Shown: positions 7,270-27,069 of the stretch, piece after piece | Layout of the letters: each line of letters begins with the position of its first letter | Position numbering within the stretch: the stretch's first letter is position 1 | Source: an uncultured virus (IMG/VR IMGVR_UViG_3300036766_001530) | Taxonomy: Duplodnaviria; Heunggongvirae; Uroviricota; Caudoviricetes | DNA: 56,938 nt | Virus record (IMG/VR): IMGVR_UViG_3300036766_001530 | Direction: 5' to 3' (one strand) | The notes under the pieces: generated by a model | The model's database searches: none | Seen by the model: only the letters and a program-made list of their open reading frames with translations | Told to the model about the DNA's origin: nothing | Position numbers and translations under genes: made by a program

Positions 7270-7896
7270 ATGCGTACGGACATCGTGGGAGCCTCCGAGA
7301 TCGTCGGCGACGACGTGCTCGACGGCGACATCTTCGGAGACGTCGAAGGCGACGCCTTCGTGGGCGACGAATCGGCCGGGGACATCGACGCGCTCATGGG
7401 CGCGTGGTACAACCCCCTGTCGTGGGGCCGCACCAAGGGCCCCTCGGCCCAGCAGCGGGCCATGGCCCTCCAGCAGCAGAGGGCGGCGGCACAGTCCGCG
7501 CTGGCTCGTCGTCGCGTGTCGGAGGGTTCGATCCTCCGCGACGTGGCGCCGACCAAGAGCCGGGAGTACATCCTCGGCTTCGACGTGACGTCCATCCCGG
7601 GCGGCGCGAGCGCGAACATCACGAAGAGGCCCCAGGTCATCTTCCGGCCGGAGCGGGTGATCATCCCCTCGACGGTCGGTGTGAACTTCCAGGTCCTCGA
7701 CGTGAAGGTCGGAAAGAACTCGCAGTTCACCGCGAGCGGCTCCGTCCCCGCCGTCGTCTTCGCCGAGACGTCGTTCGGCGTCCGCCTGAAGATGGACACC
7801 TGCCAGGTGTCGATGGACGTGACCCTGAGCGTCCAGAACACCAACGCGAACGCGCAGAACTTCACCGCCGCCATCATCGGCCCGGCGGTCGAGTAG
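7270..7896 (+). CDS. Candidate major capsid protein (single jelly-roll-like) with acidic propeptide
   Basis: Strong codon bias; acidic N-terminus with GDAFVG; C-terminal ~110 aa of alternating beta-strands (ILGFD...RPQVIFRPERVII...FQVLDVKVG...VTLSVQN...FTAAIIG). The fold is inferred. Confidence 0.55.
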   Translation: MRTDIVGASEIVGDDVLDGDIFGDVEGDAFVGDESAGDIDALMGAWYNPLSWGRTKGPSAQQRAMALQQQRAAAQSALARRRVSEGSILRDVAPTKSREYILGFDVTSIPGGASANITKRPQVIFRPERVIIPSTVGVNFQVLDVKVGKNSQFTASGSVPAVVFAETSFGVRLKMDTCQVSMDVTLSVQNTNANAQNFTAAIIGPAVE

Positions 7897-8243
7897 GTGA
7901 GTCGCGAAGCGACGAACTCCGATCTGGACTCCGGGTTTCTTCCGGGTTCCTGACCAGAGCCGGGTGGTGAGCCCGGATCGTCGCTTCGCACCCGCTTTCT
8001 GTTTTTCGCCGTAGCGAGACCCGCTCGGCCCCGGTGGTGAACCGGGCAAATCGTGGGGGTCGTCCCCGGCGGCGCGTTTCCTGAAAGTCCCAGGAACGCG
8101 CCGTCCGGGGGCTACTTTCGGAAGGGGATGGCTCCCTCCGCAACTGTTCGATTCGGTTGCTTCCGACCAAAACTAAATAGTCCCCGAAGCAGACCGTCCC
8201 CACGGCCGTTCGCTCCGGGAGTCCTTTCGAGAAAGGAAACGCA

Positions 8244-8573
8244 GTGGCAGCCAAAGACGTACAACAGCGACCGCTGGACCTCTCGTCCCCCGGCGCCACT
8301 GGCTCGCCCACCGCCCCGACCGACGCGACGCACGTCGATCCGGCCACGCTGCCTCAGCCAGACGGCGCGGGCGCTCCGGGCAACAGCCTCCTCGCCGCCC
8401 CGGCCAACCACGTCCACCCGGGCGCCACGGCCTCGAACTACTTGCAGGCCGATGTCTTTACCAATGACGCGGTCAACTGGTCAACGCTGGTGACCGTGAA
8501 CATCAACACATCGGGAGGTACGACTCTCGCTGCTCAGGCTCACGCCTCCGTCTCAAACCTGGGGAATCCCTGA
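8244..8573 (+). CDS. Virion beta-rich protein, N-terminal part
   Basis: RBS AAAGGA + GTG; AAPANHVHP fibre-type motif; stop overlaps the next ATG. Confidence 0.65.
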   Translation: MAAKDVQQRPLDLSSPGATGSPTAPTDATHVDPATLPQPDGAGAPGNSLLAAPANHVHPGATASNYLQADVFTNDAVNWSTLVTVNINTSGGTTLAAQAHASVSNLGNP

Positions 8574-8921: not shown

Positions 8922-10328
8922 ATGCCGATGCCCACGATCCAGTTCAAGCTCAAGCTCTTCCGGGGCGACTGGGACCAGGCACGTTCGCAGGTCGCTCTGC
9001 TCTGGCTCATGGAGGCGCTCGTCCGCCAGAACCAGAGCCACATCCGGCAGTTCGTCTCGCTCGCCAAGCGCGGCATCATCAAGGAGCCGTACCCGCGCCT
9101 CTATCGCGCAGGTGTCCACTACGAGCGCGAGCCGCCCGGCCAGGAAGTCTGGCCGGATGTGCCGACCATCCTGGAGACCAAGGACGGCGAGTTCTCCGGC
9201 CCCTGGGGCGACTGCTTGCCCGTCTCGACGCTCGTCGCCAAGTACAACGACAAGGGCGACGCCCAGATGTTCCCCTTCGGCTCGCTCAAGATCGGCGATG
9301 TCATCGTCGAAGGAGGACCGTCTCAGATCGCTCCAACCGGGCGCACAATGGTGCTGGAATTCGCCGAGACTGGCGAAAAAGAAATCATCGCTTTCCGCCT
9401 GGCCCACCCCTACGGAACTCCAAGAACACTCCGCTGCTCACCAGAGCACAAACTCTTCCTCCTCGAAGGTGAAAAGGAAGTCAGAGCCAAGAATGTAAGG
9501 CCCGGCGATCAGCTCCTCGGAGGAAGCAACGGCAAGTACGGGGGGCTCAAAGTCATCGAGATCACCACTCCGGGGAAAGAACGCTGCGCCGACATCAAGA
9601 CGGCCAGTGGTCGCTTCTGGCTTCCGGAATCCGACGCCATCGTCCACAACTGCGAAGACCTTGCATGCTGGCGCACGGCCGAGCTGCGCGAGCTGGGCAA
9701 CATCAAGGCCAAGCCATTCGCCAAGTGGCGCTTCGGCAAGAGCGGCAACTACCACTACCACGCGCTCACGCTTCTGCCCGACGGCCGACTCGAAGATCCG
9801 AGCCTGACGCTCGGCATGGGCCGCGAGGCCTTCTTCGCCAAGCACGACATCGTGGATCGCTACAAGAAGGGCGAGCTGAAGCCCCTCGTCATGTTCGCCA
9901 AGCTGCCCGACGTCATCGTCGTCGATCCGGAAAAGCCGACCGGCTACTCGGGCGGCAAGGCCGACTACTACCAGCAGGGCGTCTCGGGAACCGGTGCCCG
10001 CCCCGACGAGCTGGCCGCCTGGGGATACGACCACAACGATGTCCGAGGTGCCGACATGGCGGCCCTACGAGACATGACCTCCGGCATGAGCCGCGTCGAC
10101 CACATGGGCTCGTTCTCGGCCATGACCCAGCTCCCCGACATCTCGACCGCCGACATCGTCATGGGCGGAGCGCGCCACAAGATCGTCTCCAAGCACGAGC
10201 GCGAAGTCGACGACGACGGCAATACGCTCGACGCCATGATCGGCTGGAACGGCAAGACCTTCGTGCCACGCTCGGACGCCGAGGCCATGCGCCGCCTCAT
10301 GGGCTACGGGGCCGGAGGAGGTCGCTGA
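8922..10328 (+). CDS. Transglutaminase-like cysteine protease (putative maturation protease), intein-containing
   Basis: After splicing it reads WGD-CEDLACWRTAEL...YHALTLLPDGRLEDPS, a Cys-His-Asp triad in transglutaminase-like context. Confidence 0.75.
   Translation: MPMPTIQFKLKLFRGDWDQARSQVALLWLMEALVRQNQSHIRQFVSLAKRGIIKEPYPRLYRAGVHYEREPPGQEVWPDVPTILETKDGEFSGPWGDCLPVSTLVAKYNDKGDAQMFPFGSLKIGDVIVEGGPSQIAPTGRTMVLEFAETGEKEIIAFRLAHPYGTPRTLRCSPEHKLFLLEGEKEVRAKNVRPGDQLLGGSNGKYGGLKVIEITTPGKERCADIKTASGRFWLPESDAIVHNCEDLACWRTAELRELGNIKAKPFAKWRFGKSGNYHYHALTLLPDGRLEDPSLTLGMGREAFFAKHDIVDRYKKGELKPLVMFAKLPDVIVVDPEKPTGYSGGKADYYQQGVSGTGARPDELAAWGYDHNDVRGADMAALRDMTSGMSRVDHMGSFSAMTQLPDISTADIVMGGARHKIVSKHEREVDDDGNTLDAMIGWNGKTFVPRSDAEAMRRLMGYGAGGGR
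9213..9650 (+). mobile_element. Mini-intein, 146 aa, no homing endonuclease
   Basis: Starts CLPVSTLV; block B LRCSPEHKLF; VRAKNVRPGDQL; ends IVHN followed by extein Cys. Confidence 0.92.
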
Positions 10329-12497: not shown

Positions 12498-12622
12498 ATG
12501 GGCAAAGAACTTGTGACGGCCGGCGATGCTTTCGTCGGGGCAGATCCGTCGGTGAGGACAGCATCATCGGAGCATCGCTCGGCGCCATCTGCGGCACGAG
12601 CTGCTACCGCAAGGGACTCTGA
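12498..12622 (+). pseudogene. Frameshifted remnant consisting only of family tags
   Basis: MGKELVTAGDAFVG in one frame and GASLGAICGTSCYRKGL* in another; length 125 nt. Confidence 0.65.
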
Positions 12623-12640: not shown

Positions 12641-13282
12641 ATGGGCAAAGAACTTGTAACGGCCGGCGACATCGCGAGTGGTGAGGTCGGCTGGGACCTC
12701 CTTCATCTCTTCCGCCGCTCCGACACCAACACCAAGCTCACGACCGGTCCCGAGATCGCGCGAGCCCTCACGGCTTCCGAGATCGCGGACTGGATCGAGG
12801 GACGTCGTGGCAACATCGCCCACAAGCAGTCGGGCGTGGCCGCGCTGCGCTCGATGCAGGAGCGCGCGAACGCGGGCGATCAGGATGCCGCAATCGCCGC
12901 CGGCATGATCGAGCACTTCCGCCAGAACCCGGTCCGCCCTCCCGCGTACATCTACCGCAACGCCTTCCGTCGCGCTTCGCTCGCCGTCGCCCAGGCGAAA
13001 ACCCAGAACGAGGCCGCCTACAACTACGCCAAGTTCGTGAAGAGCTACAACGAGGCCGTCGCCGGCAAGGACGTCACGCTCGCCAACCTCTACGCCGAGC
13101 GACTCGCCCAGATCCGGTCCCAGTTCGGCGACAACATCGGCCAGCTCGCCGTGCAGCGGGGATTCATCTCCCCAACCGACACCAACACCTTCGCGGCCAA
13201 CGTCTCCGCCGCCAGCAAGCCCGGCGTCGCCGGCATGTTCGGCGCCCTCTGCGGCGCTGACACCTACTCGAAGGGTCTCTGA
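12641..13282 (+). CDS. Core-like protein with C-terminal tag
   Basis: Ends GMFGALCGADTYSKGL. Confidence 0.8.
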   Translation: MGKELVTAGDIASGEVGWDLLHLFRRSDTNTKLTTGPEIARALTASEIADWIEGRRGNIAHKQSGVAALRSMQERANAGDQDAAIAAGMIEHFRQNPVRPPAYIYRNAFRRASLAVAQAKTQNEAAYNYAKFVKSYNEAVAGKDVTLANLYAERLAQIRSQFGDNIGQLAVQRGFISPTDTNTFAANVSAASKPGVAGMFGALCGADTYSKGL

Positions 13283-13746
13283 TGGCCTACGGACGGGACG
13301 AACTCGAAGCGATGAGCGAAGGAGGCATCGAAGGCGATGCCTTCGTCGGCTCCTTCTGGGGAGGGGTCAAACACATGGCCCACGCCCCCAGGCTCCTCGT
13401 CGAGACGATGGTCGCCCCACTCGACTGGGCTGGTCGGAAGATCGGACTGCCGCACGCCAAGAAAGCCCGCTACTTCGATCACTACCAGTTCCCGAACGAA
13501 GCACAGCTCAACCAGGCCATCGAGAAGCTGCGAGGAGCCGGGCTCGTCGCTCACCGGTGGTACCGCTTCGACCGCGGCCCACAGCGACCGACCCTGACCA
13601 CCAACGCCACCATGAAGCAGATCATCGCCCTCAACATCGGGGGCTACCGAGTGCCCTGGCAGAAGGGGCGCACCGACACCACGCGCGCAGAGGCCCTGAA
13701 AGAGCCGACTGGCGTGCGTGGTAGCACGTACACGAAAGGACTCTGA
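13282..13746 (+). CDS. Core-like protein, GDAFVG family
   Basis: MAYGRDEL...EGDAFVG-SFWGGVK; ends TYTKGL. Confidence 0.8.
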   Translation: MAYGRDELEAMSEGGIEGDAFVGSFWGGVKHMAHAPRLLVETMVAPLDWAGRKIGLPHAKKARYFDHYQFPNEAQLNQAIEKLRGAGLVAHRWYRFDRGPQRPTLTTNATMKQIIALNIGGYRVPWQKGRTDTTRAEALKEPTGVRGSTYTKGL

Positions 13747-13749: not shown

Positions 13750-15021
13750 ATGTCGTACAGCAGGGACGAACTCAAGGCGATGGATGGCGAGGGTGTCGAA
13801 GGCGACGCCTTCGTCGGCGACCTGCGCGGCTTCCAGAGCACCTCACCTCAGGGCTTCCGCAGCTCAACTCGTCCCGACTGGTTCAACTCGGTGCCGCGCG
13901 ACAATCTCGGCGGCGAGACCGAGATCGAAGCCGGTCCCGAAACCCAGGCGTTGAGCATCCTCGGCGACGAGATGGGCTCCGCTTGGGGCAAGATCAAGAA
14001 GTACGGCAGGAAAGCCGGCAAAGGCGCCTACAAGTACGGCAAGAAGGTGGGCAAGGTCGCCTTGGCTCCCCAGCTCGCCATGTACAAGTACAGCAAGAAG
14101 GCGCTGGCGGCGATCAGCTCGGCCTCCATGTGGCCGATCAGGAAGTCCGCGCGCAAGCACATCTTGAACACGGCGATGATCTACGCCAGGGCGGGAGGCC
14201 GAGCGAAGCCCGACAAGAACGACAAGAAGCGAGCCAACGCCGCCGTCATCGCCGTCATGGCAAAGGCCCCGGGACCCAAGGGAGCGCTCCTCAAGTCGGG
14301 GGCGTACCTCCTCAAGAAGTTCGGCACCGGCGTCTCGGGCATGTCGGGCGACATCTTCATGGGTTACGAGGCCTACCCCGAGTACATCAAGAACGCCGCT
14401 GCCAGGAGTCTCATCGCCCAGGGCAAGCTGCCTCCTGGCACCAAGATCCTCGCCAACGAGCTGACCGGAAGCGGCGTCGATCCGAAGGGCTACCACATCC
14501 GCGGCCAGATCACCTATCCCAACCCGAGAGGCGGCCACTATAGCTTCTCGTACAAGGTGAGGATCAACCCTGAAATCGAGAGCATGGACGGCGACGCCTT
14601 CGTCGGCCACGACGAGGTCGGCGCCGTCGTCATCGCCAGCGGCCTTCTCGCCGCCGGCATCGCAGCCGCCATCATGGCCTCGGGCGCTCTCATCGCCATG
14701 ATGGCCACCTCGTACGCCAAGAAGCAGATCGGAGCACCCGGTGGCCAGCAGCTCGGACCACCTCCCGAGGGTGGCGAAGGAGCCCCGGGCGAAGGAGCCC
14801 CGGGCGAAGGTGCCCCGGGTGGTGAGGGCGGAGGGGCTCCGGGCGAGGGAGCCCCGGGTGGTGGCGAAGGCGGCGAAGGTGGTGGCGAAGGTGGCGGAGC
14901 CCCCGGTGAGGAAGGAGCGCCTCCCGAAGGTGGCGAAGAGGGCCCGCAGGACGAATCGTCCGGCATCGAGTCGCTCATGGGCGGCTTCTGCGGCATGTCC
15001 TGCTACCGGAAAGGACTCTGA
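13750..15021 (+). CDS. Core-like polyprotein, GDAFVG family, with TM segment and GEGAP repeats
   Basis: Two GDAFVG motifs; ends GIESLMGGFCGMSCYRKGL. Confidence 0.85.
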   Translation: MSYSRDELKAMDGEGVEGDAFVGDLRGFQSTSPQGFRSSTRPDWFNSVPRDNLGGETEIEAGPETQALSILGDEMGSAWGKIKKYGRKAGKGAYKYGKKVGKVALAPQLAMYKYSKKALAAISSASMWPIRKSARKHILNTAMIYARAGGRAKPDKNDKKRANAAVIAVMAKAPGPKGALLKSGAYLLKKFGTGVSGMSGDIFMGYEAYPEYIKNAAARSLIAQGKLPPGTKILANELTGSGVDPKGYHIRGQITYPNPRGGHYSFSYKVRINPEIESMDGDAFVGHDEVGAVVIASGLLAAGIAAAIMASGALIAMMATSYAKKQIGAPGGQQLGPPPEGGEGAPGEGAPGEGAPGGEGGGAPGEGAPGGGEGGEGGGEGGGAPGEEGAPPEGGEEGPQDESSGIESLMGGFCGMSCYRKGL

Positions 15022-15125
15022 TCCCACATGGCCTTCGATAAGGATGAAATGGTCCTCGACTCCTCGGGCGACGGTGAGCCGCGAAGCGGCGAACTCTGCT
15101 CTGGTCCGAACAAAAAGGAAGTCTG

Positions 15126-15839
15126 ATGGCCTTCGATAAGGATGAAATGGTCCTCGACTCCTCGGGCGACGAATCCGTCGCCTGGGAGACGGTCGGCCTT
15201 ATCACGCCTCCAAGGCCCACGCCTCGCCCCGGGTGGGTACGAAAGCTCATCCACCGATGGGCGTTCGCTGCCAGGCGATCTGACCGGGCCCGTGCCGAGG
15301 GCGACCAGGAGCGATCCGCATCAGCTCAGCGCCGCATGGCCAGAGTCAACCGGAACTACCAGCAGGTGACCGGCCGCTCCGACATTCGGGCGCGAGCCAT
15401 AGCGATGGGGCTCTACCGGCCGGCGCCACCCCCGCCACCACCACCTCCACCGCCGGCCTACGATCCGTACGCTCAGCAGTACGGGCAGCCCGACTCCTAC
15501 GCCTCGGCATCTCCTGACGATCCGTACGCCCAGTACGATCCGTCGACCTACGATCCGAACATCGCTGGTAACGACGTCGGGGCCGTCTTCTCACCCTCGA
15601 CCTGGTTCATGACCAAGGCCGAGGAGAGCCTCCACTGGGAGAAGAAGAAGGCAGCGACCGACATCAAGGCCGCCAAGGAAATGGCCTCCCTCCGCCAGCA
15701 AGAAAAGGCTGCCTTCGAGGAGGCCGCCTCTGCCAGGAAGGGGATCGAGGAAGCCAGGAAAGCCGCCGGGATGGCAGGAATCGAATCCATCATGGGTGGT
15801 CTCTGCGGCACAAGCTGCTATCGGAAGGGACTCGACTGA
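15126..15839 (+). CDS. Core-like protein, MAFDKDE family
   Basis: MAFDKDE...SGDE; poly-Pro; ends GIESIMGGLCGTSCYRKGLD. Confidence 0.8.
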   Translation: MAFDKDEMVLDSSGDESVAWETVGLITPPRPTPRPGWVRKLIHRWAFAARRSDRARAEGDQERSASAQRRMARVNRNYQQVTGRSDIRARAIAMGLYRPAPPPPPPPPPPAYDPYAQQYGQPDSYASASPDDPYAQYDPSTYDPNIAGNDVGAVFSPSTWFMTKAEESLHWEKKKAATDIKAAKEMASLRQQEKAAFEEAASARKGIEEARKAAGMAGIESIMGGLCGTSCYRKGLD

Positions 15840-17796: not shown

Positions 17797-20700
17797 ATGG
17801 AACTCTCTCGCATCTTCAATCTTTGGGCGAACAAGGGCAGCAAGCCCGAGCCCGAGCCCAAGGCTCACAATCTCCGTCCCGCAATCTCCATCCGCAACGA
17901 GGGTGACAAGGTCTGCGCGACACTGAGTCTCGACACGGCGCAGGGCAAGCGCGAGTACACCGCGTGCGTTCTGCCCTCCGAGGTCGAGGAGATCCGCAAG
18001 CTCATCTACGACTGGGTCCACCATCGCAACACCGCCGCTCTCGCGAAGATGCCCGAGCACGCAAGACTCGCCGCGACCACTTCGCTCGGCGAGTCGGAAA
18101 CCCTCAACCCCTTCGAGAAAAGTGAGCCGCGAAGCGGCGAACTCCGGTCCGGTTCCGGACAAAAGACCAAGCAGCTCGACCCCGGCGAGACCATGACCCC
18201 GTCCTGGGCCAAGTCCGGCAAAAGCCCCGCCATCCCCAAGAAGACCGCCACCTACGATCCGGACGCTCTTCTGCCCATGGCTGACGGCCGCAAGCTCAAG
18301 GGCAAGGTCACCAAGGCCCCCTTCGATCCGGACGCTCCTCTTCCCGTCTCCTTCACCAAAAAGAAGGACTCCAGGCACGGCGCGGCGACCGCAGCCGTGA
18401 CCGATCCGGACGCTCCGATGCCCATGTCGACGTCCGGCGACTCCATCACGATCCTCGGTCAGGACGCGGTCGACCAGATCGCCGAGAGCCACATCCGAGG
18501 ACTCGTGCTCGACCGCCTCGACAAGGCCGCCCCCAAGGGAGCCATGGAAGCCGTCGCTCGTCTGGAACTGTCTCGTCGCGTGACGACGAGCGGCGCCGGC
18601 TTCCATGAGGATGACGCTCTCGACACCCAGCCCGGGGAGCCCCGCGACGTCCTCCTCGACTTCGGCCCGGACACGACCTTCCTCGACGACTCGACGCACG
18701 AAGCCGAGATGATGAAGAAGATGAACCAGGGCACGAGCGCGATCGACAAGACGCTGCTCGATCAGATGTACGGCGAACTCCGCTCCGATCTGTCCGGAAT
18801 GACCGCCCTCGAAAAGGCCGCCCTCGGAGCCACCGCGGGTGTCGCGACCGCAGCCCTCGTCCGATCGGCTCAGGAGGCCAGCGCCTTGCGAGAGAGCAGG
18901 GGCCTGGCAATGAAAGCCCCTCCGGAAGAGAGCGACTTCATCGTCGGCATCGACCTCGAAGGAGCCTTTGTCGGCGAAAAGCAGATCCTCTCTGGAACCA
19001 TCGAGCCAATCGTTTCCGACGGCAAGACCGTCGGCTGGAAACTCCCTGACCAGGGGATCGCCAAGCGCCTGAAGAAGACCGACTCGAAGCACTCCAAGCG
19101 GTTCGTTCCAGATCGTGACAAGGAAAAGCTCGCCCTCGTCAAGCAACTCGAAAAGGCGCTCGTCACCCGACGCGCCAACTACCTCGCGTTCCAGAAGGGC
19201 GCCGCCAAGCCGACGCCGATCCAGATCGCCAGCGCCAAGACCTGGGCCGCCGCCAAGATCAAGAAACACGGCCTGCCCCTGCCGGCAAGCGCCGTCATCG
19301 GAGAGGCCACCTTCTCGGCGCTCCCGCAGGGCGTCTTCTGGGACCCGAAGAAGGGCGCCCTGCCCGGCACCAACCCGCAGACCGGCCGCTACGATGCTCA
19401 GTACCCAGCCCCAGATCCGCGCACCGCTTCCACGTCCCCGCTCCCCCAGCCCGGCTACACGTCGCCACTCGCTCGGCCCGGCTACACGTCGCCGCTTCCG
19501 ATCGCCGCCCCCTCGTATCCCAGAGCCTTCGCACCCATCACGTACCCGGGGGCCCGCCGACCACTTCCCACCTCCCCTGCCGCCATGCAGTTCCGACTGC
19601 CCCCCGGCCCCCGGCCATCGGCTCCCATCATGGCCGCTCTGCAAGTCTGGCACGGAGCGAACCGAGGCAACCAGTTCTACCGCCGCGAGGTTCTCGCCGC
19701 CAAAGCAGACGAAGGCCGTGGTGTGCCTCTCGCGCGCCAGCGCATGAACGAGCTGCGGGCCGCCAGATCGTGGTGGCGGAAGCGCATGCGCAAGCGACCC
19801 GTTGCCCATGGTCCGATGGGTCCCGCGTCCATCGCCGCGCTGGCCGCTCGCAGATACACGTCCACGGCCAGGGCGGCTATGATGGGTGCGACGGGAGCCG
19901 CTGCCGACAAGCGCCTCGGTCCCCTGCCCTCCAACGCCTTCGCCGGCATCGAGGACTGGGTGCTCGACGCGCTCATCCGTACCCGCGCGGGCGAGAAGGC
20001 CGCCTGGGTATCCATCAACTCGGTGGCCAATCGCCCCGAGGTCGCGGCGGCAATCGCTGCCGCCACTGCGCGGCTTGCGCTCCAGACTCCCGGCAAGACC
20101 TGGAAGTCGCCCAACGGCTACGCCTACAAGCTCTCGCCGGACGGGAGCTGGGTGCGCCTGCCCGGCAAGCCGGCTGCAACCTCGACAGCCATGGGACTCT
20201 CCGCCGTGGATCTCGATCCTCGCTCCTGGTTCTGGTGGAGCAAGGAAGAGACCGCCCTGCGCAAGAAGCGGCGCGAGGCGAGGGCTCGCTCCGAGCAGCT
20301 CGAAAAGATCGCTCCCATCGCCCAGGAGACCGTGGCACTCCGGGCCAAGAGCGCCGAGATGGAGAAGATCGTCCAGGAGGCTCAGTCGTCTGGCGATTCG
20401 CTCACCGGCTCTCACGTGCCCGGCCACATCGACGAGACCGGCACCTGGCCGGCCACGACGGCCCCGATCGAATCCGAGCCTCCCGCCACTCTCGACACTT
20501 CGCGGGCTCCTCTCATCACCTTCCTCGGCACCTGGTGGAACCCGACGACCTGGTTCAAGAAGAAAGCCGAGGAGACCCTCAAGGACTCCGAGGTCGAAGC
20601 TCCTCCGAGCGTGCCCCAGATCGTCGTGATTGATGACCAGGACCAGGACCAGGACCGGGACCAGGACGACCGGGACCAGGACCAGGACCAGGGCGACAAT

Positions 20701-23700
20701 AGCTACGACTACGACGACGCGAGCGGTGTGAGCGCTCTCGACGTCATGCGCGTGCCCGAGCAGATCATCCGATCGCTCGCGGCTCCCAAGCCCGCGCTCT
20801 CTCACCTCACGTCGCTGACAGCACCAGCCCCAGTGGCTCCCGCTACGGCTCCCAGGACCGGCGCCCGAACGGCCCCGGCCTCGACGGCCGCTGCCCCGAC
20901 CACCAAGCCCAAGTACGAAGAAGAAGTGAACGAAGGAGACATCACCATGGGTCACGAGAACGAGGAAGACATGAGGGGTGTCGATGGTGATGCCTTCGTC
21001 GGAGACGATGTCGGCTTCGGCTTCGGCGATCTCATCAAGTGGCCTCTCAAGGGTGTCGAGCGCGTGCTGACCGGCACCTACTACGGAGCCAAAGGCTTGA
21101 CGCTGGGCACCTACAAGGGCGTCCGCTACGGGACCGACGAGCCCGGCAAGAAGCAATCGCCCATGGAGAAGCGCGCTGCGGCTCGCAAGAAGAAGCGTGA
21201 AGCCGCCGCCAAGCGCAAACTGGCAGCCGCCAAGCGCCAGCGGGCCGCCGTTGCCCAGCAGCGTGCCGCTCGTGCCGAGCGTGCCGAGGAGCGCGCCGCT
21301 GCCCAGGCCGAGGCCCGAGCCGCCGCCGCCGAGGCCGCCGCTGCCGAAGCCGAGGCTGGCGATCTCGAAGCTGACGCTTCCGAAGCCGGCCCGGACGCCG
21401 GGGCCCCGGACGAGGGCGAGAGCATGGACAACACCACTTCGGAGGGCGACGCCTTCGTCGGCGCCGAGGCCGTCAAGAAGGCCCAGGCGAAGCTCCACCC
21501 GGCCGCCAAGAAGTATCTCGGACCAGCGGCCAAGGTCGCCGCCACTGCCACACCCGCCGGGGCCCAGATCCGAGCTGGCCAGGAGTTGTACAAGGCCGGG
21601 AAGAAGGGCCACCCGCAGGCGAAAAAGGCCATCGAGACCATCGCCCAGAAGGCCACCGAGGGTCACCCGCAGGCGAAGAAGGACATGGCTGCCCTCCACG
21701 CAGGCCGCCAGGCAGAGATGGAGATGAAGACGGCCCGCAAGGCCGATGTGGCCATCAAGAGAAAAGACGCCCAGCAGAAGCGCCAGGTCTCGCAGCGCAA
21801 GCACGTCGAACTGCTCGCGCTCTATGGGGCGGGCGTGACGGTCCCCCAGGCTCCACGAGATCCGGCTAAGCGCCGCTTCAACGCCGCTCTCGAAGCGGAC
21901 AAGAAGGTCGCCGCGGGCGATCCGAAGGCTCGCGGCGAAAAGGCCATCATCGACGCCGCCGCCTCCCAGGGCAATCCAACGGCCAAGAAGATGCAGAAGG
22001 AAGCGGCGGTCGCCCGCGTCGTCAACCAGCAGACGAAAACTCCAGAAGATCGCAAACGGTTCGCCGCCGCGTACGCGATGTACAAAGATCAGAACAAGTG
22101 GGGCCATCGTGGAGCGAAGGCGAGGGAGGGCCTGAAGTTCATGTACGACGCCGCTGCCGCTGGCGATCCGAAAGCCATCAAGGCAATCGACGCGATGAAG
22201 GCTGCCATCGCCGCCGACATCGCCATCAAGGGCAAGAAGCACGAGGTCTACGCCTCCCGCAAAGAAAAGATGGAGAAAACGCGCCCGGCGTCTCCCACCA
22301 AGAAGATCGAGAGGATCGATCTGGAAGCGGAGGCAAGGCCCGACGTCGGCTACCCGATCTTGCGCCTGGGCGCAACCGGCGCAGCGGTAGGCAAGCTCCA
22401 GGGCCAGCTCAACACCGCGGGCTTCGGTCCCCTCAAGATCGACGGGGCCTTCGGTCCCGGCACGAAGAAAGCCGTCATGCGATTCCAGGTGTCCCGCCGG
22501 CTGCCCGCCAATGGTGTCGCCGGTCCCAAGACGCAGCAGGCTCTCTCGGCTGCTCCGTCAGCTCCCGCGCCCCTGGTCGCCAGAAAGGATGAAAGCGTCG
22601 AGCAGCTCATGCAGAGAGCGACCGGCGGAAAGAAGCCGGCCCCGGTCGCCACGCCGACCGCTCCCTCGATCACCACTCTGCGTCTCGGCTCTCATGGCCC
22701 GGCGGTCGGCAAGCTCCAGGGCCAGCTCAACACCACCGGTCACTGGCCCCTCAAGGACCCTCTCAAGATCGACGGCGTCTTCGGCCCCAGCACTCGAACT
22801 GCCGTGATGGGATTCCAGAAGTCGCATGGGCTCACGCCTGATGGCGTCGCCGGCCCCAGGACGCTCGCGGCTCTCTCGGCCGCTCCGCCAGTTGCCCCGC
22901 CTCTCGTCGCCAGGAAAGTTGCTCCCACCGGAGTTGACCCCTGGGCTACCGCACAGGTTCCGACCTCGATCGCCGTCCTGCGTCTCGGCTCTCGCGGCCC
23001 CGCGGTCGGCAAGCTTCAGGGCCAGCTCAACACGGCCGGCTTCGGACCCCTCAAGATCGACGGCGCCTTCGGCCCCGGCACAAGGAGATCCGTTGTCCGG
23101 TTCCAGGCCTCCCGCAAGCTCAAGCCGGACGGCATCGCCGGCCCGCAGACGCTCGCGGCCCTTGCGGCTACTCCGCCGGCCTCGCCCGCCGTTGCGGACG
23201 TCCGGAAGATGGTCGAGAAGCACAAGGGCGAGACCGTTCCCACTCCCAACAAGATCGACCAGTCGAAGTTCTCGCCCGCCGCGCAGCAGAAAATCGAGGA
23301 AGCCAAGCGAGATCCGGCCGTGAAAGAAGAGATCAGGACCACCCAAAAGTCGGTCGAGAAAGCTCTCGCGGGCGATCAGACCGAGGCGCTGAATGTGAGA
23401 GAGCAGGCCAAGAATCCTGCCACGTCCGGCATCACCGAGGTCGCAACCGCTCTCGCCGCCTCCAAGGCTCCTGCCGGCACGTTCCCTGGTAGTCCCGGCG
23501 GCCCTGGTGGTCCCGGCGGCCCTGGTGGTCCCGGCGGTCCTGGAGGTCCCGGCCCGGTGCCTCCCGAGATCGCCAAGCAGCTCTCCACCCCCGACGGCAA
23601 GATCAACCTGGCGGCCCTACCTCCTCCGGCCCGGGAGGCCGTCATCACCGCCCAGCACGATCCTGAGGCGGCCGACAAGCTCGCGAGCAACGCCAAGATC

Positions 23701-24354
23701 CTGAAAGATGCTCACGCGAATGTTCCGGGAGCACAGGACAAGGTCGACGAGGCCATGCAGAGCCCAGACACCGCCGCCGGCATGGCGGCAGCCACCGCCT
23801 TCCTCGCCGCCAAGCAGCGGCGAGCGGAGTCCGGCCTGCCCCCGGCCCCGATCGCCACCACCGGCAAGCCCCTTGGAGCTGGAGGTCCCGCTCGCGAGAC
23901 CATGACCCCTCCCGAGTTCGAGGAAGGACCCTCGGCGACCGAACCATCACCAGCCGCCGTCCAGGCAGCCGTCGAAGCAACCCCGGACGCCGCAAGAAAG
24001 ATCGACCTATTCAATGCCGGAGATCCGGCGACGAAAAAGGAGTTCGCCGAGGCCGCCAAAGTCCTGAAGGCCAAGGAAGCTGGCAACCCCGCCGCCAGGG
24101 ATCTCATCAAGCAGGCCCAGAAGGACGCGGACGAAGGCCACAAGCCGGCCAAGGAAGCTCTCGCGACCTTGATTGGCGTCCAATACCTCATCATCATCCA
24201 CAAGGGACGCAAGCGCACGAAGGCCGCCGAGCAGCTCGCGCAAGCGATACCAAGCCGTGCGGAGTTGCGAGTGATGGAACCAGAGGCGTTCGGCCACTGG
24301 TACACGGGGCCGTTCTCGACGTACCGCAACGCAGTCCGCATGGGATGGAGCTGA
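17797..24354 (+). CDS. Giant 2185-aa virion protein with three peptidoglycan-binding (PG_binding_1-type) domains
   Basis: Three LRLG..G.AVGKLQGQLN..G...IDG.FGP.T...V..FQ....L..DG.AGP.T units at about 22360-23165; GDAFVG motifs; DQ and GGP low-complexity tracts. Confidence 0.85.
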   Translation: MELSRIFNLWANKGSKPEPEPKAHNLRPAISIRNEGDKVCATLSLDTAQGKREYTACVLPSEVEEIRKLIYDWVHHRNTAALAKMPEHARLAATTSLGESETLNPFEKSEPRSGELRSGSGQKTKQLDPGETMTPSWAKSGKSPAIPKKTATYDPDALLPMADGRKLKGKVTKAPFDPDAPLPVSFTKKKDSRHGAATAAVTDPDAPMPMSTSGDSITILGQDAVDQIAESHIRGLVLDRLDKAAPKGAMEAVARLELSRRVTTSGAGFHEDDALDTQPGEPRDVLLDFGPDTTFLDDSTHEAEMMKKMNQGTSAIDKTLLDQMYGELRSDLSGMTALEKAALGATAGVATAALVRSAQEASALRESRGLAMKAPPEESDFIVGIDLEGAFVGEKQILSGTIEPIVSDGKTVGWKLPDQGIAKRLKKTDSKHSKRFVPDRDKEKLALVKQLEKALVTRRANYLAFQKGAAKPTPIQIASAKTWAAAKIKKHGLPLPASAVIGEATFSALPQGVFWDPKKGALPGTNPQTGRYDAQYPAPDPRTASTSPLPQPGYTSPLARPGYTSPLPIAAPSYPRAFAPITYPGARRPLPTSPAAMQFRLPPGPRPSAPIMAALQVWHGANRGNQFYRREVLAAKADEGRGVPLARQRMNELRAARSWWRKRMRKRPVAHGPMGPASIAALAARRYTSTARAAMMGATGAAADKRLGPLPSNAFAGIEDWVLDALIRTRAGEKAAWVSINSVANRPEVAAAIAAATARLALQTPGKTWKSPNGYAYKLSPDGSWVRLPGKPAATSTAMGLSAVDLDPRSWFWWSKEETALRKKRREARARSEQLEKIAPIAQETVALRAKSAEMEKIVQEAQSSGDSLTGSHVPGHIDETGTWPATTAPIESEPPATLDTSRAPLITFLGTWWNPTTWFKKKAEETLKDSEVEAPPSVPQIVVIDDQDQDQDRDQDDRDQDQDQGDNSYDYDDASGVSALDVMRVPEQIIRSLAAPKPALSHLTSLTAPAPVAPATAPRTGARTAPASTAAAPTTKPKYEEEVNEGDITMGHENEEDMRGVDGDAFVGDDVGFGFGDLIKWPLKGVERVLTGTYYGAKGLTLGTYKGVRYGTDEPGKKQSPMEKRAAARKKKREAAAKRKLAAAKRQRAAVAQQRAARAERAEERAAAQAEARAAAAEAAAAEAEAGDLEADASEAGPDAGAPDEGESMDNTTSEGDAFVGAEAVKKAQAKLHPAAKKYLGPAAKVAATATPAGAQIRAGQELYKAGKKGHPQAKKAIETIAQKATEGHPQAKKDMAALHAGRQAEMEMKTARKADVAIKRKDAQQKRQVSQRKHVELLALYGAGVTVPQAPRDPAKRRFNAALEADKKVAAGDPKARGEKAIIDAAASQGNPTAKKMQKEAAVARVVNQQTKTPEDRKRFAAAYAMYKDQNKWGHRGAKAREGLKFMYDAAAAGDPKAIKAIDAMKAAIAADIAIKGKKHEVYASRKEKMEKTRPASPTKKIERIDLEAEARPDVGYPILRLGATGAAVGKLQGQLNTAGFGPLKIDGAFGPGTKKAVMRFQVSRRLPANGVAGPKTQQALSAAPSAPAPLVARKDESVEQLMQRATGGKKPAPVATPTAPSITTLRLGSHGPAVGKLQGQLNTTGHWPLKDPLKIDGVFGPSTRTAVMGFQKSHGLTPDGVAGPRTLAALSAAPPVAPPLVARKVAPTGVDPWATAQVPTSIAVLRLGSRGPAVGKLQGQLNTAGFGPLKIDGAFGPGTRRSVVRFQASRKLKPDGIAGPQTLAALAATPPASPAVADVRKMVEKHKGETVPTPNKIDQSKFSPAAQQKIEEAKRDPAVKEEIRTTQKSVEKALAGDQTEALNVREQAKNPATSGITEVATALAASKAPAGTFPGSPGGPGGPGGPGGPGGPGGPGPVPPEIAKQLSTPDGKINLAALPPPAREAVITAQHDPEAADKLASNAKILKDAHANVPGAQDKVDEAMQSPDTAAGMAAATAFLAAKQRRAESGLPPAPIATTGKPLGAGGPARETMTPPEFEEGPSATEPSPAAVQAAVEATPDAARKIDLFNAGDPATKKEFAEAAKVLKAKEAGNPAARDLIKQAQKDADEGHKPAKEALATLIGVQYLIIIHKGRKRTKAAEQLAQAIPSRAELRVMEPEAFGHWYTGPFSTYRNAVRMGWS

Positions 24355-24357
24355 CCA

Positions 24358-27069
24358 ATGGGCTACTCGAAAGAAGAAGCTGGCGAACTGCAACGAGCGA
24401 AGGCCCTGCCGGCGCGCTTCCGCTCGGAAGGCGACGCCTTCGTTGGTCTGTCGATGGGGCCCCGGCATTCCTGGGGACCATCTTCCGAGATGGCCCGACG
24501 TGCTCGTCGAGCCGCACGCGCGGCTCGCACCGCGGCGCCCTCTCCGTTGATGCCGGCCGAGATGCCCAAGCCCAAGAAGAAGCACAAGAAGCGGCACTGG
24601 TGGCAGAAAGCCTGGTCCGGCGTCAAGGACGTGGCCACCTTCATCCCCGCGCACGGGGGTGAGATCGCCAGGGGCATGATGACCGCCGCCTCGGCCGCTC
24701 CCATGCTGATGCGGGGCGAAGGATCTGAAGAGGACATGCGGGGTGTCGAGGGTGACGCCTTCGTCGGTGACGACTTCATGGGCGATGCCTTCGTCGGACG
24801 TTTCAGCCGCGACGAAGCGCAGGCCGTCGCTCGCGACGGCGCTCTGCCCTATCTCGACGACATCTACCGTGGTGGCCGTGACGAGCCAGTCGAAGCCGGT
24901 CCGCACGACATCGTGATCTCAGAGCAGGACGAGTTCCTCGGTGACATCGACGGCGACGCCTTCGTTGGCGCATACACAGGCACGGCGACCCGACGGGGGC
25001 TCATGCGCAAGTGGTCCACCAACAGGACTCGCAAGCGCATCACCGGGCAGGCTGGCGACCGGCAGAAGGAAGCCTGGCACATCCAGCAGATGCGCGAGGC
25101 GCGACTGGAATGGAGGAAAGCCGGATTCCGGCCAAGATCGATCAAGAGGGCCTCCATGGAAGCCGGTCTCTACACTCCGATGGCTGGCGACTCCGTCGAC
25201 GGCGACGCCTTCGTAGGAAACGACGAAGCTGCCAGGCACCGCAACATCGAGGCTCGCAACCTCGCGGCCGGGCTCGTCTCCTCAGATCCGGCGATCGCAC
25301 GCGACGCGAAGGAGACCTTCGCCGTGCTCGAACGTCGATCCCAGGTCGATCCCGAAGCCAAGAAGACGGTCGAGGGCGTGCTCTTCTTCAAGAAGCGGCT
25401 CGAAGCCCGGGGACCCCAGGATGTTTTGAGCGGCGGCGACAGCCCGGATGACCTCGTCAAGCGATGGGGCGAGGAAGCCAATCGCCTCATCAAGAACCCC
25501 CGCCACGGCAACATGCAAGAGCTGGAAGAAATCGCTCGTCGTTTCCGATCTCTCGTTCCCAGAGGAACACCGCCCATCGGCCTGCTCGCGAGCAAGCAAG
25601 GTCTCGTGAATCTTGACGCCTATCGCGAGGCCGTCACGAGATGGAACGCCTTTGCCGGCCCCGAGAGGAATCCGAACGACATGATCTCCGGCGAAGAGGA
25701 CGACCGCAAGCACGCTGCCATCTACAAGGCGGCCAAGGCCGGCGACCCGAAAGCTCTGCTCGAAGTCGATCGCTTCGTCGGCAAGCGCCTGTCGCAGGGC
25801 CTCGCCTCTGGCGACAAGAAGATGATCGCGGCCTACAAGACGCTCAAGGCTGAGGCCGACAAGGGCGACAAGCGCGCCGCCCGCGTGATCCACTTCGCCG
25901 ACACGGCCGAAATCGAAACCGACATCCCGAACGTCTCAGGTGACGCCTTCGTCGGCTCTCACCATCTCGAAGAAGCCAGGGTCCTCCTGGCCGCTGCGAA
26001 CGCCGGTGACGAGAAGTCCCGGAACCTCATCCTGACCGCGGCCGAACACGCGCAGGCCGGCAACCCCGCAGCAATCAAAGCGATGAAGACCCTCAACAAG
26101 GTGGCAAGCAAGATGAGTGGAGATGCTTTCGTCGGAGCCTATCGTCCCCAGGCGGGCGGCAACCGCCAGGCGATCCTCGACCAGTGGGTCCGCAACTACA
26201 AGATCAAGCACGCCAACCCCAAGGGCTCGCCCCAGTGGAAGAGCGCCAAGAAGTACATGAGCGGCGCCTACAAGGCCTGGAGGAAGTCCGGCTTCCAGCC
26301 GAAGCACATCAAGATGGCTGCCAGATCCTCGGGACTCATCTCCGGCGACGCCTTCGTGGGCGTCTCGGCCTACGGCGGCTACAGCGTCGCCGAGGCCGGG
26401 GCCATCATCAAGGCCGCCAAGATGGGCAACCCCAAGGCTCGCGGGCTCATGAAGATGCTGTCGCTCCACGCCAAGCAGGGTCACCCGGAAGCGAAGCTCG
26501 CCGTCCAGGCCCTCTACGCCGCGGACAAGGTCAGCAAGATGAGCGGCGATGCCTTCGTGGGAGATGAAGCGAAGCCCAGCCCGAAGATGATGGAGCACCT
26601 CGCCCAGATCGCCCGCGGCCTCGACTCGACCGACGAGGGAACCCGGGGCACCGCGCGATCTGACTACCACAGCTACGTCGAAGCCTCCCGCGGGGGCGAC
26701 AAGCGAGCCGGAGCCTACACCCAGATCATCGACAAGCTGCGCGGCTCCACCGAGTCAACGGTCGCTCGACCTCGCACGACACAGAAGGACGTGCTCACCG
26801 CCTCGCTCGGCGCCATCTGCGGCGCGGATGCCTACCGCATGGGCCTTGCCACCGGAGATGAAGAAGGGGTCTTCGACTCCGAAGACGGCCCGAAGGACAC
26901 GCTCGACCCGTTCTTCAACCGCCCGATCAATCCCTACGACGACGCCGTCGAACCGGCCGAAGACATCGCTCTCGACAACGCCGCCACCATGCCCGAGAGT
27001 GTCGCGTCCCTCTCCGGCATCATGGGAGCCTTCTGCGGCACCCGCGGCTGCTACCGGGCGGGGCTCTAG
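24358..27069 (+). CDS. 903-aa putative polyprotein with nine GDAFVG motifs
   Basis: Nine motifs counted in the translation; ends GIMGAFCGTRGCYRAGL. Confidence 0.85.
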   Translation: MGYSKEEAGELQRAKALPARFRSEGDAFVGLSMGPRHSWGPSSEMARRARRAARAARTAAPSPLMPAEMPKPKKKHKKRHWWQKAWSGVKDVATFIPAHGGEIARGMMTAASAAPMLMRGEGSEEDMRGVEGDAFVGDDFMGDAFVGRFSRDEAQAVARDGALPYLDDIYRGGRDEPVEAGPHDIVISEQDEFLGDIDGDAFVGAYTGTATRRGLMRKWSTNRTRKRITGQAGDRQKEAWHIQQMREARLEWRKAGFRPRSIKRASMEAGLYTPMAGDSVDGDAFVGNDEAARHRNIEARNLAAGLVSSDPAIARDAKETFAVLERRSQVDPEAKKTVEGVLFFKKRLEARGPQDVLSGGDSPDDLVKRWGEEANRLIKNPRHGNMQELEEIARRFRSLVPRGTPPIGLLASKQGLVNLDAYREAVTRWNAFAGPERNPNDMISGEEDDRKHAAIYKAAKAGDPKALLEVDRFVGKRLSQGLASGDKKMIAAYKTLKAEADKGDKRAARVIHFADTAEIETDIPNVSGDAFVGSHHLEEARVLLAAANAGDEKSRNLILTAAEHAQAGNPAAIKAMKTLNKVASKMSGDAFVGAYRPQAGGNRQAILDQWVRNYKIKHANPKGSPQWKSAKKYMSGAYKAWRKSGFQPKHIKMAARSSGLISGDAFVGVSAYGGYSVAEAGAIIKAAKMGNPKARGLMKMLSLHAKQGHPEAKLAVQALYAADKVSKMSGDAFVGDEAKPSPKMMEHLAQIARGLDSTDEGTRGTARSDYHSYVEASRGGDKRAGAYTQIIDKLRGSTESTVARPRTTQKDVLTASLGAICGADAYRMGLATGDEEGVFDSEDGPKDTLDPFFNRPINPYDDAVEPAEDIALDNAATMPESVASLSGIMGAFCGTRGCYRAGL

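Follow-up and report, generated by a model that had tools for sequence, protein, structure and literature searches.

The virus described here, uncultured and presumably a tail-less one of bacteria, probably trims its tagged candidate particle proteins during assembly with a cysteine enzyme encoded close to its capsid gene. The stretch of DNA analysed, hereafter the window, covers 56,938 nt of a 119-kb contig, and about 62 kb of that contig lies outside it. We favour, at a probability of roughly 0.6 and on evidence from sequences and structure models, a maturation protease that cuts after a hydrophobic residue and glycine, taking off acidic leaders, setting free ends that are basic or amphipathic and splitting a 903-aa protein. 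In the proposed pathway, an intein would first splice out of the enzyme. The enzyme, a neighbour of its substrates with a transglutaminase fold, would then recognise the motif and cut after its Gly. While the particle assembles, acidic leaders would keep the basic arms and the amphipathic helices neutral; cutting would strip these leaders and trim short C-terminal peptides. The enzyme would also shorten its own tail, and the 903-aa protein would be split into small core modules, basic or helical in character.

A glycine-ending motif is constrained at the protein level

GDAFVG occurs 16 times in the window, always on the plus strand (minus strand, 0), against a chance expectation from composition of 0.0016 in 14,644 called residues. 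The first-pass annotation had placed 15 of these copies, all of which we found; it missed one at 12522, in a frameshifted relic. The copies start at 7348 (capsid candidate), 12522, 13333, 13801, 14590, 20986, 21445 and at nine positions in the gene at 24358..27069. A variant, EGAFVG, lies at 18958 on the plus strand, inside the protein encoded by 17797..24354. Searching with the 18-nt consensus and at most two mismatches gives 12 plus-strand and 0 minus-strand matches. All mismatches among these near-consensus copies (13/13) fall at codon position 3, and constraint therefore acts on the peptide. A DNA-level repeat was rejected as the origin of the motif; the near-consensus copies vary synonymously only, and their flanks are unrelated to each other.

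In general form, the motif is an acidic or small residue, a hydrophobic residue, V/I/L/M and Gly, fixed as GDAFVG in the window lineage. Its hydrophobic-Gly core is kept across loci spanning 37% to 69% GC. Sequence information lies only before the Gly, in a one-sided profile that owes most of its shape to the copies in the window.

A motif matrix was trained on the capsid leaders of relatives and compared with shuffled sequences. It matches proteins of the 6.6-27 kb region 29 times (5 of them within the capsid candidate) against 3.5 in shuffled sequence, and the 38.5-48.2 kb block 0 times against 1.2. For the record G001 the counts are 10 against 2.4 in the core and 25 against 20.8 over 1-119 kb. 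In a 29.9-kb genome (G003), [VM]G occurs 44 times in particle genes against 25.5 in shuffled sequence (maximum 38 of 300), and is not enriched in the other genes (20 against 20.5). Two matrix results count against cleavage: of the 15 called core proteins only 7 have a match, and when the threshold is tightened the part of G001 that is not structural gives 14 matches against a shuffled mean of 6.8 (maximum 13).

Looser forms of the motif, also listed in the first-pass annotation, are present, but those in the genes at 38131, 49747 and 51381 do not rise above chance by matrix score. Outside 6.6-27 kb, matrix matches number 4 against 4.3 shuffled at threshold 4, and 4 against 1.1 (maximum 5) at threshold 6. 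The loose pattern [DE].[VIM]G shows no enrichment in a six-frame count (29 plus, 77 minus).

Motif-bearing genes downstream of the capsid candidate

The motif-bearing genes all lie on the plus strand. At 12498..12622 is a broken cassette, with the GDAFVG leader (12522) in one frame, a C-terminal tag in another and no middle; it is identical in a Logan contig from run X1, possibly the sample that gave the window. A 213-aa protein (12641..13282) has a GEVG leader, a helical body and a C-terminal tag. The next, of 154 aa (13282..13746), carries an acidic leader, GDAFVG (13333) and then an amphipathic stretch. In the 423-aa protein (13750..15021), GDAFVG (13801 and 14590) is joined by GDEMG before a basic amphipathic helix, DEVG before a hydrophobic segment and SLMG before a C-terminal Cys tag. 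ETVG, GNDVG and SIMG with a C-terminal Cys tag are found in a 237-aa protein (15126..15839); a 46-bp duplication lies at 15028/15126. The 219-aa protein that follows (15839..16498) has a helical module and SIMG with a Cys tag; its leader reads GDEIA, and the missing Gly counts against cleavage. GDEIG recurs in two further proteins: one of 127 aa (16498..16881; motif at 16537), where a basic amphipathic helix follows, and one of 210 aa (16881..17513; motif at 16920), where an amphipathic stretch, a hydrophobic segment and an Arg/Gly-rich part follow. The protein at 17797..24354 (2185 aa, net charge +63) has three peptidoglycan-binding domains and helical repeats, with EGAFVG at 18958 and GDAFVG at 20986 and 21445. 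Weaker members are a 140-aa protein with an EIVG leader resembling that of the capsid candidate (38131..38553), one of about 300 aa with an N-terminal DDDDVVG (49747..50673) and one of 232 aa with TEVG before a hydrophobic segment (51381..52079). Against Pfam and PHROG, motif-bearing proteins gave only peptidoglycan-binding and SLT domains, and the capsid candidate gave nothing. The KGL end of the C-terminal tag was discounted as a protein signal because its KGL-stop codons partly serve as ribosome-binding site for the next gene.

The capsid candidate carries a leader with a charge switch

The gene at 7270..7896 (plus strand) encodes 208 aa and, judged by its 486 homologs and a structure model, would be the major capsid protein, of single jelly-roll type. 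It consists of an acidic disordered leader (1-44), a basic helix (60-84) and a jelly roll (about 95-208). The model has a pLDDT of 74, with residues 1-42 below 50 and strands at 99-206. Its best structural match is 6h82_b of HHIV-2 (Z 8.4, rmsd 4.6, 112 aligned), the sole match with Z above 8 and near the range of common arrangements; 6h9c_Z (Z 7.2), 6oj0_T (Z 6.8) and 3zmn_A (Z 6.1) follow. A PDB sequence search with the capsid profile returned nothing, and Foldseek against PDB at E 0.001 gave no match for this model or that of the enzyme. The leader (7270..7401, plus strand), a predicted propeptide, carries DIVG, EIVG, GDAFVG (7348-7365) and ALMG. In 85 relatives the capsid leaders are likewise disordered, each with 3-7 hydrophobic-Gly motifs, in total 381 against 184 shuffled (maximum 216 of 500). 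Their net charge is -13.8 before the last site and +6.8 over the next 30 residues. One capsid candidate (locus L109) has a basic leader that still contains VRVG, VKVG and TRVG, which counts for cleavage.

Directly before the capsid gene, 6606..7067 (plus strand) encodes a conserved, moderately hydrophobic protein of 153 aa, a candidate membrane or scaffold protein. Its family is found in 66 loci, window included. Among 52 distinct sequences, AFVG occurs in 10 and G[MIVL][FL]G in 27, and the relatives' motif precedes a conserved C-terminal helix; the window copy is without a clear motif.

This helix bears on a rather doubtful alternative, in which the motif acts as a tag for docking or loading onto the inner face of capsomers, a scaffold or a membrane protein, and is uncut or cut incidentally. 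Such a tag would resemble a cargo-loading peptide, with stacked copies adding avidity. Copies of the motif are stacked 4-5 residues apart, many are preceded by a leader helix (D/E-E-x-x-L) similar to the C-terminal helix of the 6606 family, and the exact hexamer is conserved beyond the needs of most protease sites. However, the motif is also found on the capsid protein and in the enzyme's own tail, conservation ends at the Gly, and in the 85 leaders charge changes sign from one side of the last copy to the other. Docking and cleavage are also compatible, as T4 propeptides are described as targeting proteins into the prohead as well (PMC10052503).

A transglutaminase-like enzyme with an intein follows the capsid gene

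A cysteine protease gene in the same operon had been noted from the sequence, and a gene for a cysteine enzyme lies at 8922..10328 (plus strand). It encodes a 468-aa enzyme precursor with Cys244 (9651), His280 and Asp292. An intein of 146 aa (C...HN; 9213..9650, plus strand) sits immediately before the catalytic Cys. Its 438 bases are missing from the contig of a close relative (run X4 record 26), an intein-less allele; of 42 genes in which the junction is visible, 12 have an intein at the catalytic Cys. The enzyme is a member of the transglutaminase-like superfamily, with the order Cys-His-Asp and an upstream Trp. W76, C99, H180 and D192 are invariant in 32/32 family members (alignment A2) and present in the window gene, and the signature reads G/A-D-C-E-D...H...D. 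PF01841 matches 4 of the 32 members, only short distant ones (best E 6.9e-6); Atlas structure rows name PF01841 and PF06035, and a PDB sequence search gave only chance rows. The family, large and unannotated, comprises 2141 clusters at 50% identity.

The enzyme gene is tightly linked to the capsid gene. Where a locus extends at least 6.5 kb downstream, the enzyme comes after the capsid gene in 27 of 28 cases, or in 18 of 19 clusters at 90% identity. One locus, L019, has no enzyme within 8.5 kb and counts against cleavage. The window enzyme's tail, low-confidence in the model, carries DHMG, IVMG and AMIG; across the family, E/L-hydrophobic-G-AY is found in 16/22 tails and hydrophobic-[IFL]-G-W in 21/22. 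Natural fusions join the enzyme to motif-bearing segments (P0169, P0258, P0285, P0243 and P0211). In G003 it is the only protease-like Pfam match among 30 proteins scanned.

The fold leaves room for other work, which we consider unlikely: the enzyme may be a cell-wall isopeptidase, a cross-linking transglutaminase or a transpeptidase joining the Gly end to an amine, in which case a different viral or host protease would handle the motif or the motif would mark a ligation site. The enzyme's neighbours among the structural matches listed are transglutaminase-like. The closest, at modest scores, are the virus-encoded cell-wall isopeptidases PeiP (Z 5.5, rmsd 3.5, 110 aligned) and PeiW (Z 5.4), ahead of TglA (4.9) and LapG (4.3), and true transglutaminases are also among them. 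An invariant Trp precedes the catalytic Cys. Cross-linking enzymes and acetyltransferases likewise belong to the superfamily, and hydrolase and transferase activities are both reported in it (PMC10318531). Some relatives encode a papain-family (C1-like) or M50 peptidase, and the C1-like genes, like the superfamily's range and the PeiP/PeiW match, count against cleavage. Against other work, however, the C1-like gene is present only in a minority of loci, and the enzyme has no hydrophobic signal segment and no cell-wall-binding Pfam domain, SLT and peptidoglycan-binding functions being encoded on separate proteins. The enzyme is moreover fixed after the capsid gene and fused to motif-bearing segments.

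Module boundaries in a candidate polyprotein coincide with the motif

The candidate polyprotein (24358..27069, plus strand; 903 aa) has nine GDAFVG copies, at 24430, 24751, 24781, 24952, 25201, 25939, 26119, 26344 and 26545, and two Cys tags near its end. As first described, GDAFVG separates its modules: acidic, basic and helical modules are bounded by the copies. These modules resemble each other and one separate protein, module 534-593 being 55% identical to the helical module of the 15839 protein. Two homologs have gained or lost modules and keep four motif copies each. Counted against cleavage, the nine motif positions align to an intact motif at 3/9 in P0288 and 1/9 in P0287. Stand-alone genes for the modules were sought in the relatives' loci, with only weak matches in large proteins. 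Direct scanning of viral contigs, with the capsid protein and with the 24358 protein as query, yielded no relatives.

That the internal copies in 24358 and 17797 are functionless relics, left by a leader cassette that multiplied through duplication and through read-through fusion between translationally coupled genes, is very improbable: a leader-plus-tail remnant at 12498, the 15028/15126 duplication, the reuse of KGL-stop codons as ribosome-binding site and the P0287 layout (gene-end peptides, then an in-frame Met and acidic leader) fit it, but near-consensus copies differ synonymously only amid unrelated flanks, the motif persists in homologs at 36-37% identity and its hydrophobic-Gly core from 37% to 69% GC, and fusion accounts for the origin of a polyprotein, not for retention of sites. 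The maturation protease remains our preferred reading. Besides the copy number, leader statistics and matrix matches, it draws on the linkage and invariant triad of the enzyme, the intein at its catalytic Cys, the motif in its tail, its fusions, the 24358 modules and the G003 enrichment.

Discussion

Poxvirus I7 and ASFV pS273R cut virion precursors at Gly-containing motifs, and ASFV core proteins are polyproteins. The window system resembles those of adenain with pVI, pVII and the pVIc cofactor, virophage MVP, pS273R and I7 in pairing a jelly-roll virus with a virus-encoded cysteine enzyme and a short Gly-ending motif on several precursors. Kinship with adenain, I7 and pS273R is not supported. 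Viral maturation proteases of clan CE run His-Asp/Glu-Cys along the chain (His54, Glu71, Cys122 in adenain, AVP; PMC4246237), whereas the window enzyme has Cys-His-Asp and a transglutaminase-like fold. Nor do the sites fit the adenovirus type. The clan CE viral consensus is given as GG/X or GX/G, cut at the slash (PMC6048507), while the window motif is hydrophobic-hydrophobic-Gly; no copy of GDAFVG (0/16) has Gly at +1 or +2, so it fits neither form. Three S(I/L)MG-G sites near C-termini are compatible with GG/X. The window virus further differs in being bacterial by inference and in its single jelly-roll capsid with an N-terminal leader. Likeness between 24358 and ASFV-type core polyproteins is in modular layout only. 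In mavirus, the capsid extension has multiple protease sites (PMC6048507), a likeness to the several candidate sites of the leader here.

T4/phiKZ-like prohead proteases are serine-type enzymes that cut after A-x-E, in viruses with HK97 heads, portal and terminase. Multi-substrate head maturation is already known in such tailed phages. One SPN3US protease, gp245, is described as cutting 14 sites in nine substrates, with N-terminal propeptides cut at several internal short-motif copies and a C-terminal propeptide of its own (PMC10052503). The window system is like this group in its presumed bacterial host, its predicted multi-site propeptides and an extension on the enzyme itself; it differs in its hydrophobic-Gly motif, cysteine enzyme and jelly-roll capsid candidate. 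With PeiP, PeiW, LapG (BTLCP, PF06035) and TglA, the enzyme has in common the fold and the G/A-D-C-E-D...H...D signature. Known substrates in the PeiP/PeiW group are pseudomurein isopeptides, unlike the capsid role proposed here, and that of LapG is a host adhesin; we found none of these protease types described as a capsid maturation enzyme.

Single jelly-roll virion proteins of Halopanivirales (Sphaerolipoviridae, Simuloviridae, P23-77) and Portogloboviridae (SPV1) are among the best structural matches of the capsid candidate. According to ICTV entries, these viruses have genomes of 16-30 kb and two types of major capsid protein, whereas the relatives here have a long motif-bearing leader, a linked enzyme and contigs of 30 to 260 kb. 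The same cassette recurs in a genome of 30 kb that has terminal repeats and in a contig of 194 kb. Neither capsid nor short enzyme matched any of 50,697 INPHARED phage records. Atlas clusters, where labelled, are mostly Uroviricota. PF03237 terminase was found in neither G001 nor G003, and tailed-phage head-module Pfam families matched none of the 67 G001 and 30 G003 proteins scanned (G001 being 88% complete). A PHROG labelled terminase large subunit matches a HerA-like G001 protein (E 2e-13), and a terminase match in G004 was rejected as it falls on a helicase-like ORF. PF01935 (FtsK/HerA-type ATPase) is present in G001 only, one of three records, and in none of the window proteins scanned. 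The capsid profile has three matches in G001; the window protein at 49009 matches weakly (probability 9%). An inner membrane would be consistent with the hydrophobic segments of several core proteins. We infer a bacterial host; G002 was rejected as host evidence, as its viral genes (1-41 kb) are joined to genes of alphaproteobacterial type and the large structural protein is missing from it. In the open literature searched, we found nothing that describes this virus group or a capsid protease of transglutaminase-like type, and the main text of PMC5894146 contains neither "protease" nor "transglutaminase" (0 occurrences).

A wider scheme is tentative, and we hold it possible at best. An undescribed tail-less lineage of single jelly-roll bacterial viruses (contigs 30-260 kb) may have independently evolved a full adenovirus-like maturation on a transglutaminase-fold protease, with a capsid propeptide, a core polyprotein that arose through the fusion of genes, membrane-active helices exposed by cleavage and a catalytic Cys gated by an intein. 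A released C-terminal peptide of 12-13 residues containing Cys might then act as a pVIc-like cofactor. In adenovirus, the protease works with a short Cys-containing C-terminal peptide, pVIc (PMC4246237), and protein VI contains a membrane-active peptide (10.1101/857581).

Among jelly-roll viruses, proteolytic maturation is known for those of eukaryotes, whose proteases belong to clan CE. If the maturation protease proposed here is real, a bacterial jelly-roll lineage with a protease of another clan would have arrived by convergence at sites that end in Gly, at acidic propeptides and at polyproteins. A large enzyme family that lacks annotation would then gain a substrate, and a virus group missing from cultured phage records would gain marker genes.

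The motif network in the window and in relatives

A six-frame scan of the window found 16 copies of GDAFVG, on the plus strand only, and recovered all 15 listed in the first-pass annotation. The sixteenth, at 12522, lies within a broken cassette (ATG 12498) whose leader and C-terminal tag are in different frames. In the called plus-strand genes (14,644 residues), where composition predicts 0.0016 copies, GDAFVG is the commonest hexapeptide and also the one that the most proteins have in common. At the DNA level, its consensus with at most two mismatches matches 12 times on the plus strand and 0 times on the minus, and 13 of 13 mismatches fall at third codon positions. Logan contigs from run X1, possibly the source sample, match most of 7.1-27.1 kb without differences. 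The looser motif forms described earlier are indeed present, but by score alone the copies at 38131, 49747, and 51381 do not exceed chance expectation.

The motif network is real and conserved. In an alignment (A1) of 85 of the 120 listed capsid homologs, each disordered N-terminal leader carries 3-7 hydrophobic-Gly sites, 381 in total versus 184 after shuffling (maximum 216 in 500 shuffles). DIVG, AFVG, EILG, DFVG, and DILG are the commonest. Net charge in A1 is -13.8 (-20 to -6) before the last site and +6.8 (0 to +12) over the next 30 residues. Relatives with the same layout have DEVG, DVVG, HEIG, or DELG ahead of basic helices, and the helical moment exceeds the 90th percentile in 5 of 10 hand-picked post-site stretches. 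The capsid candidate of locus L109, which matches the profile at 55% probability, has a basic leader, yet retains VRVG, VKVG, and TRVG. Sequence comparison therefore points to hydrophobic-Gly as the conserved core, the acidic surroundings being lineage-specific.

A site matrix was trained on 370 hydrophobic-Gly sites of capsid leaders. At 6.6-27 kb it gave 29 matches versus 3.5 in shuffled sequence, with 7 of 15 called proteins matched and 5 matches in the capsid candidate; the 38.5-48.2 kb block gave 0 versus 1.2. For the relative G001, the counts were 10 versus 2.4 in the core and 25 versus 20.8 at 1-119 kb. At a stricter threshold the latter region exceeds the shuffles (14 versus 6.8, maximum 13), so exclusivity of the motif is imperfect. 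In a second relative, G003, [VM]G, a pattern picked after inspection, counts 44 versus 25.5 in particle genes and 20 versus 20.5 elsewhere.

The motif could act as a docking tag rather than a cleavage site, which we consider unlikely. An F[VI]G-anchored profile (84 sites, window copies included) holds 0.54-0.81 bits at P4-P6 and 0.16-0.25 past the Gly. Trp or Phe occurs within the four residues after the Gly at 28 of 105 hydrophobic-Gly sites versus 66 of 459 other Gly.

The capsid candidate and the virus group

The capsid candidate (gene 7270, named like the others by start coordinate; 208 aa) has 486 homologs. In its predicted structure, a disordered leader (1-42) is followed by a long helix and a beta-sandwich. 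Among structural matches, HHIV-2 chain 6h82_b ranks first (Z 8.4, rmsd 4.6, 112 aligned); HCIV-1, SPV1, and P23-77 virion proteins come lower, among many unrelated jelly rolls. Fold, conservation, and position point to the major capsid protein. Diverged or tandem jelly-roll copies without a leader occur at 48781-49674 of the window, in P0035 and P0040, and at 12561 of locus L007; window gene 49009 matches the capsid profile weakly.

The window is part of a 118,938-base contig, and relatives were found on contigs of up to 260,842 bases. The host is probably bacterial, because the window has 11 tRNA calls, encodes peptidoglycan-binding and SLT domains, and has ribosome-binding-site-like sequences before most genes. 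Neither capsid nor enzyme matched any of 50,697 phage records.

G001 (194 kb, 88% complete) encodes a HerA-like ATPase and a B2-type polymerase. Its loci (L083-L092) also hold many glycosyltransferases, a major-vault-like protein, Ro60/TROVE, RtcB, RNA ligase, ThyX, and a C1-like peptidase. Terminase, portal, and HK97 had no Pfam match among 67 G001 proteins scanned. Two results count against this: a PHROG labelled terminase matches the HerA-like ATPase, and Atlas clusters, where labelled, are mostly Uroviricota. G003 (L108, L110, L111; 29,914 bases) has direct terminal repeats, yet its CheckV completeness is 31%. It carries the capsid-enzyme cassette, the match of its capsid to the profile having a probability of 99%, and no packaging ATPase or terminase was recognised in it. 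G003 is the smallest model for experiments.

A 314-aa gene (52170-53114) is kept in 13 loci including the window, often directly upstream of the gene preceding the capsid gene (6606 family) in relatives; G003 probably has a counterpart. In MAG contig G002:C14 (L081), alphaproteobacterial genes adjoin some 41 kb of this virus type near 41,000; the viral part is without the large structural genes, and the junction may be a chimera or a prophage edge.

A cysteine enzyme beside the capsid gene

The enzyme gene (8922-10328) is interrupted by a 146-aa intein (9213-9650) placed immediately ahead of Cys244. These 438 bases are missing from a relative's contig, and an intein occupies this site in 12 of the 42 enzyme genes whose junction is visible. 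Essential active sites are favoured places for intein insertion. An alignment of 32 homologs shows W, D-C-E-D, H, and E-D without variation, the catalytic residues running Cys, His, Asp; PF01841 matches 4 of the 32. A homolog lacking the intein, modelled at pLDDT 82, matches PeiP (Z 5.5), PeiW (5.4), TglA (4.9), LapG (4.3), and other transglutaminase-like folds. The family comprises 2141 clusters at 50% identity. Many distant homologs (P0158, P0159, P0162, P0165, P0171, P0193, P0208, P0245) have two tandem domains; the catalytic signature is often missing from the first copy, and an intein often sits at the Cys of the second.

Of 28 loci that extend 6.5 kb or more past the capsid gene, 27 have the enzyme 0.2-6.1 kb 3' of that gene (18 of 19 after clustering at 90% identity); for loci that extend 5 kb or more, the figure is 30 of 32. 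It is missing from the downstream stretches of L018 and L019, as far as these extend. Among 150 listed representatives, P0169, P0258, P0285, P0243, and P0211 fuse it to segments with hydrophobic-Gly sites; in P0169, TVILG precedes a basic amphipathic helix. The enzyme's own low-confidence tail has E/L-hydrophobic-G-AY in 16 of 22 full-length homologs and hydrophobic-[IFL]-G-W in 21 of 22. Among 30 G003 proteins scanned, it is the sole protease-like Pfam match. The transglutaminase-like superfamily is described as holding both hydrolases and transferases (PMC10318531); that this enzyme has another job altogether seems to us quite improbable.

The 903-aa protein and its C-terminal tag

In protein 24358, nine sites delimit segments that are 10-246 residues long and range in net charge from -10 to +13. 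Residues 205-287 resemble 594-668, and 534-593 resemble 669-735; segment 534-593 also shares 55% identity with a stretch of another protein, 15839. The search for homologs yielded only two, at 36-37% identity; both retain G[DN][AT]F[VI]G four times and have whole modules missing or added. Few motif positions align intact (3 of 9 in P0288, 1 of 9 in P0287), and the sites therefore travel with modules. In P0287, gene-end peptides run into an in-frame Met and acidic leader, which suggests that the polyprotein arose through fusion of coupled genes. That the motif copies are simply relics of fusion is very improbable.

Both homologs end in the Cys tag, after DVVG or SVMG. The tag is hydrophobic-Gly, then G/A-hydrophobic-C-G-x-x-(x)-C/A/T-Y-R/S-x-G-L. 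This tag, which the first-pass annotation does not mention, stands at the C-terminal end of 12641, 13750, 15126, 15839, 24358 (twice), and the broken cassette at 12498; 13282 has the last residues only. Its KGL-stop codons also serve as a ribosome-binding site for the next gene, but the codons of C-G and Y-R show synonymous changes only. AFCG might be no more than AFVG carrying Cys at P2. Apart from the two homologs of 24358, the tag turned up in none of the fetched loci, save YRRGL ends in three. Cleavage at the tag would release Cys peptides of 12-13 residues. Adenovirus pVIc, an 11-residue Cys peptide, is described as activating AVP (PMC4246237; PMC4740752), and a parallel with the tag peptides is speculation.

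Other repeats in the window

A 25-bp palindrome-containing element (GTGAG, a 4-bp stem, a GAA/GGA loop, then CGAACTCCG) occurs 25 times from 368 to 56904 (21 plus, 4 minus; 0 expected by chance). Copies are intergenic, adjacent to tRNAs, or in frame within genes (18122, 34560); the element is absent from 109 loci. It is a candidate REP-like mobile element or promoter hairpin. At 15028-15171 it sits between 46-bp direct repeats duplicating the start of gene 15126, and at 17548-17813 it lies within a tandem duplication (near 17.6 kb). The element is a possible driver of local duplication. Several of the 11 clustered tRNA genes (242-4464) have this palindromic element upstream.

Otherwise unrelated small proteins at 39648-42673 and 38564-48100 share N-terminal tags of two families, MSKFEDSFQKA-like (six starts) and MAHxHxxxCL-like (about ten); G001 has a MAYDLL-like family. 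The Gly motif is absent from these tag families, which are possible loading or export signals.

Comparison with known systems and proposed maturation

The annotation's analogy with adenovirus, poxvirus, and ASFV may hold for the proposed mode of maturation, but not for the enzyme. Adenain has the catalytic order His54, Glu71, Cys122 (PMC4246237), whereas the window enzyme is Cys-His-Asp with a transglutaminase-like fold and is therefore no adenain homolog. Adenovirus, virophage, and ASFV maturation, as described in PMC6048507, uses clan CE enzymes and GG|X and GX|G sites; the window system would work similarly but differs in catalytic order and sites. SPN3US prohead maturation would likewise be similar in mode but not in site. 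SPN3US gp245 is described as cleaving off its own C-terminal propeptide (PMC10052503), a possible parallel to the motif in the window enzyme's tail. A literature search found no paper on this virus group or on a transglutaminase-like capsid protease; the main text of PMC5894146 contains neither 'protease' nor 'transglutaminase', and its supplements could name such genes.

We favor, at a probability of about 0.6, the reading that the enzyme is a maturation protease. It would cut after the motif Gly. Cuts at leader sites would remove the acidic leaders and free basic and amphipathic ends, and cuts within 24358 would split the polyprotein.
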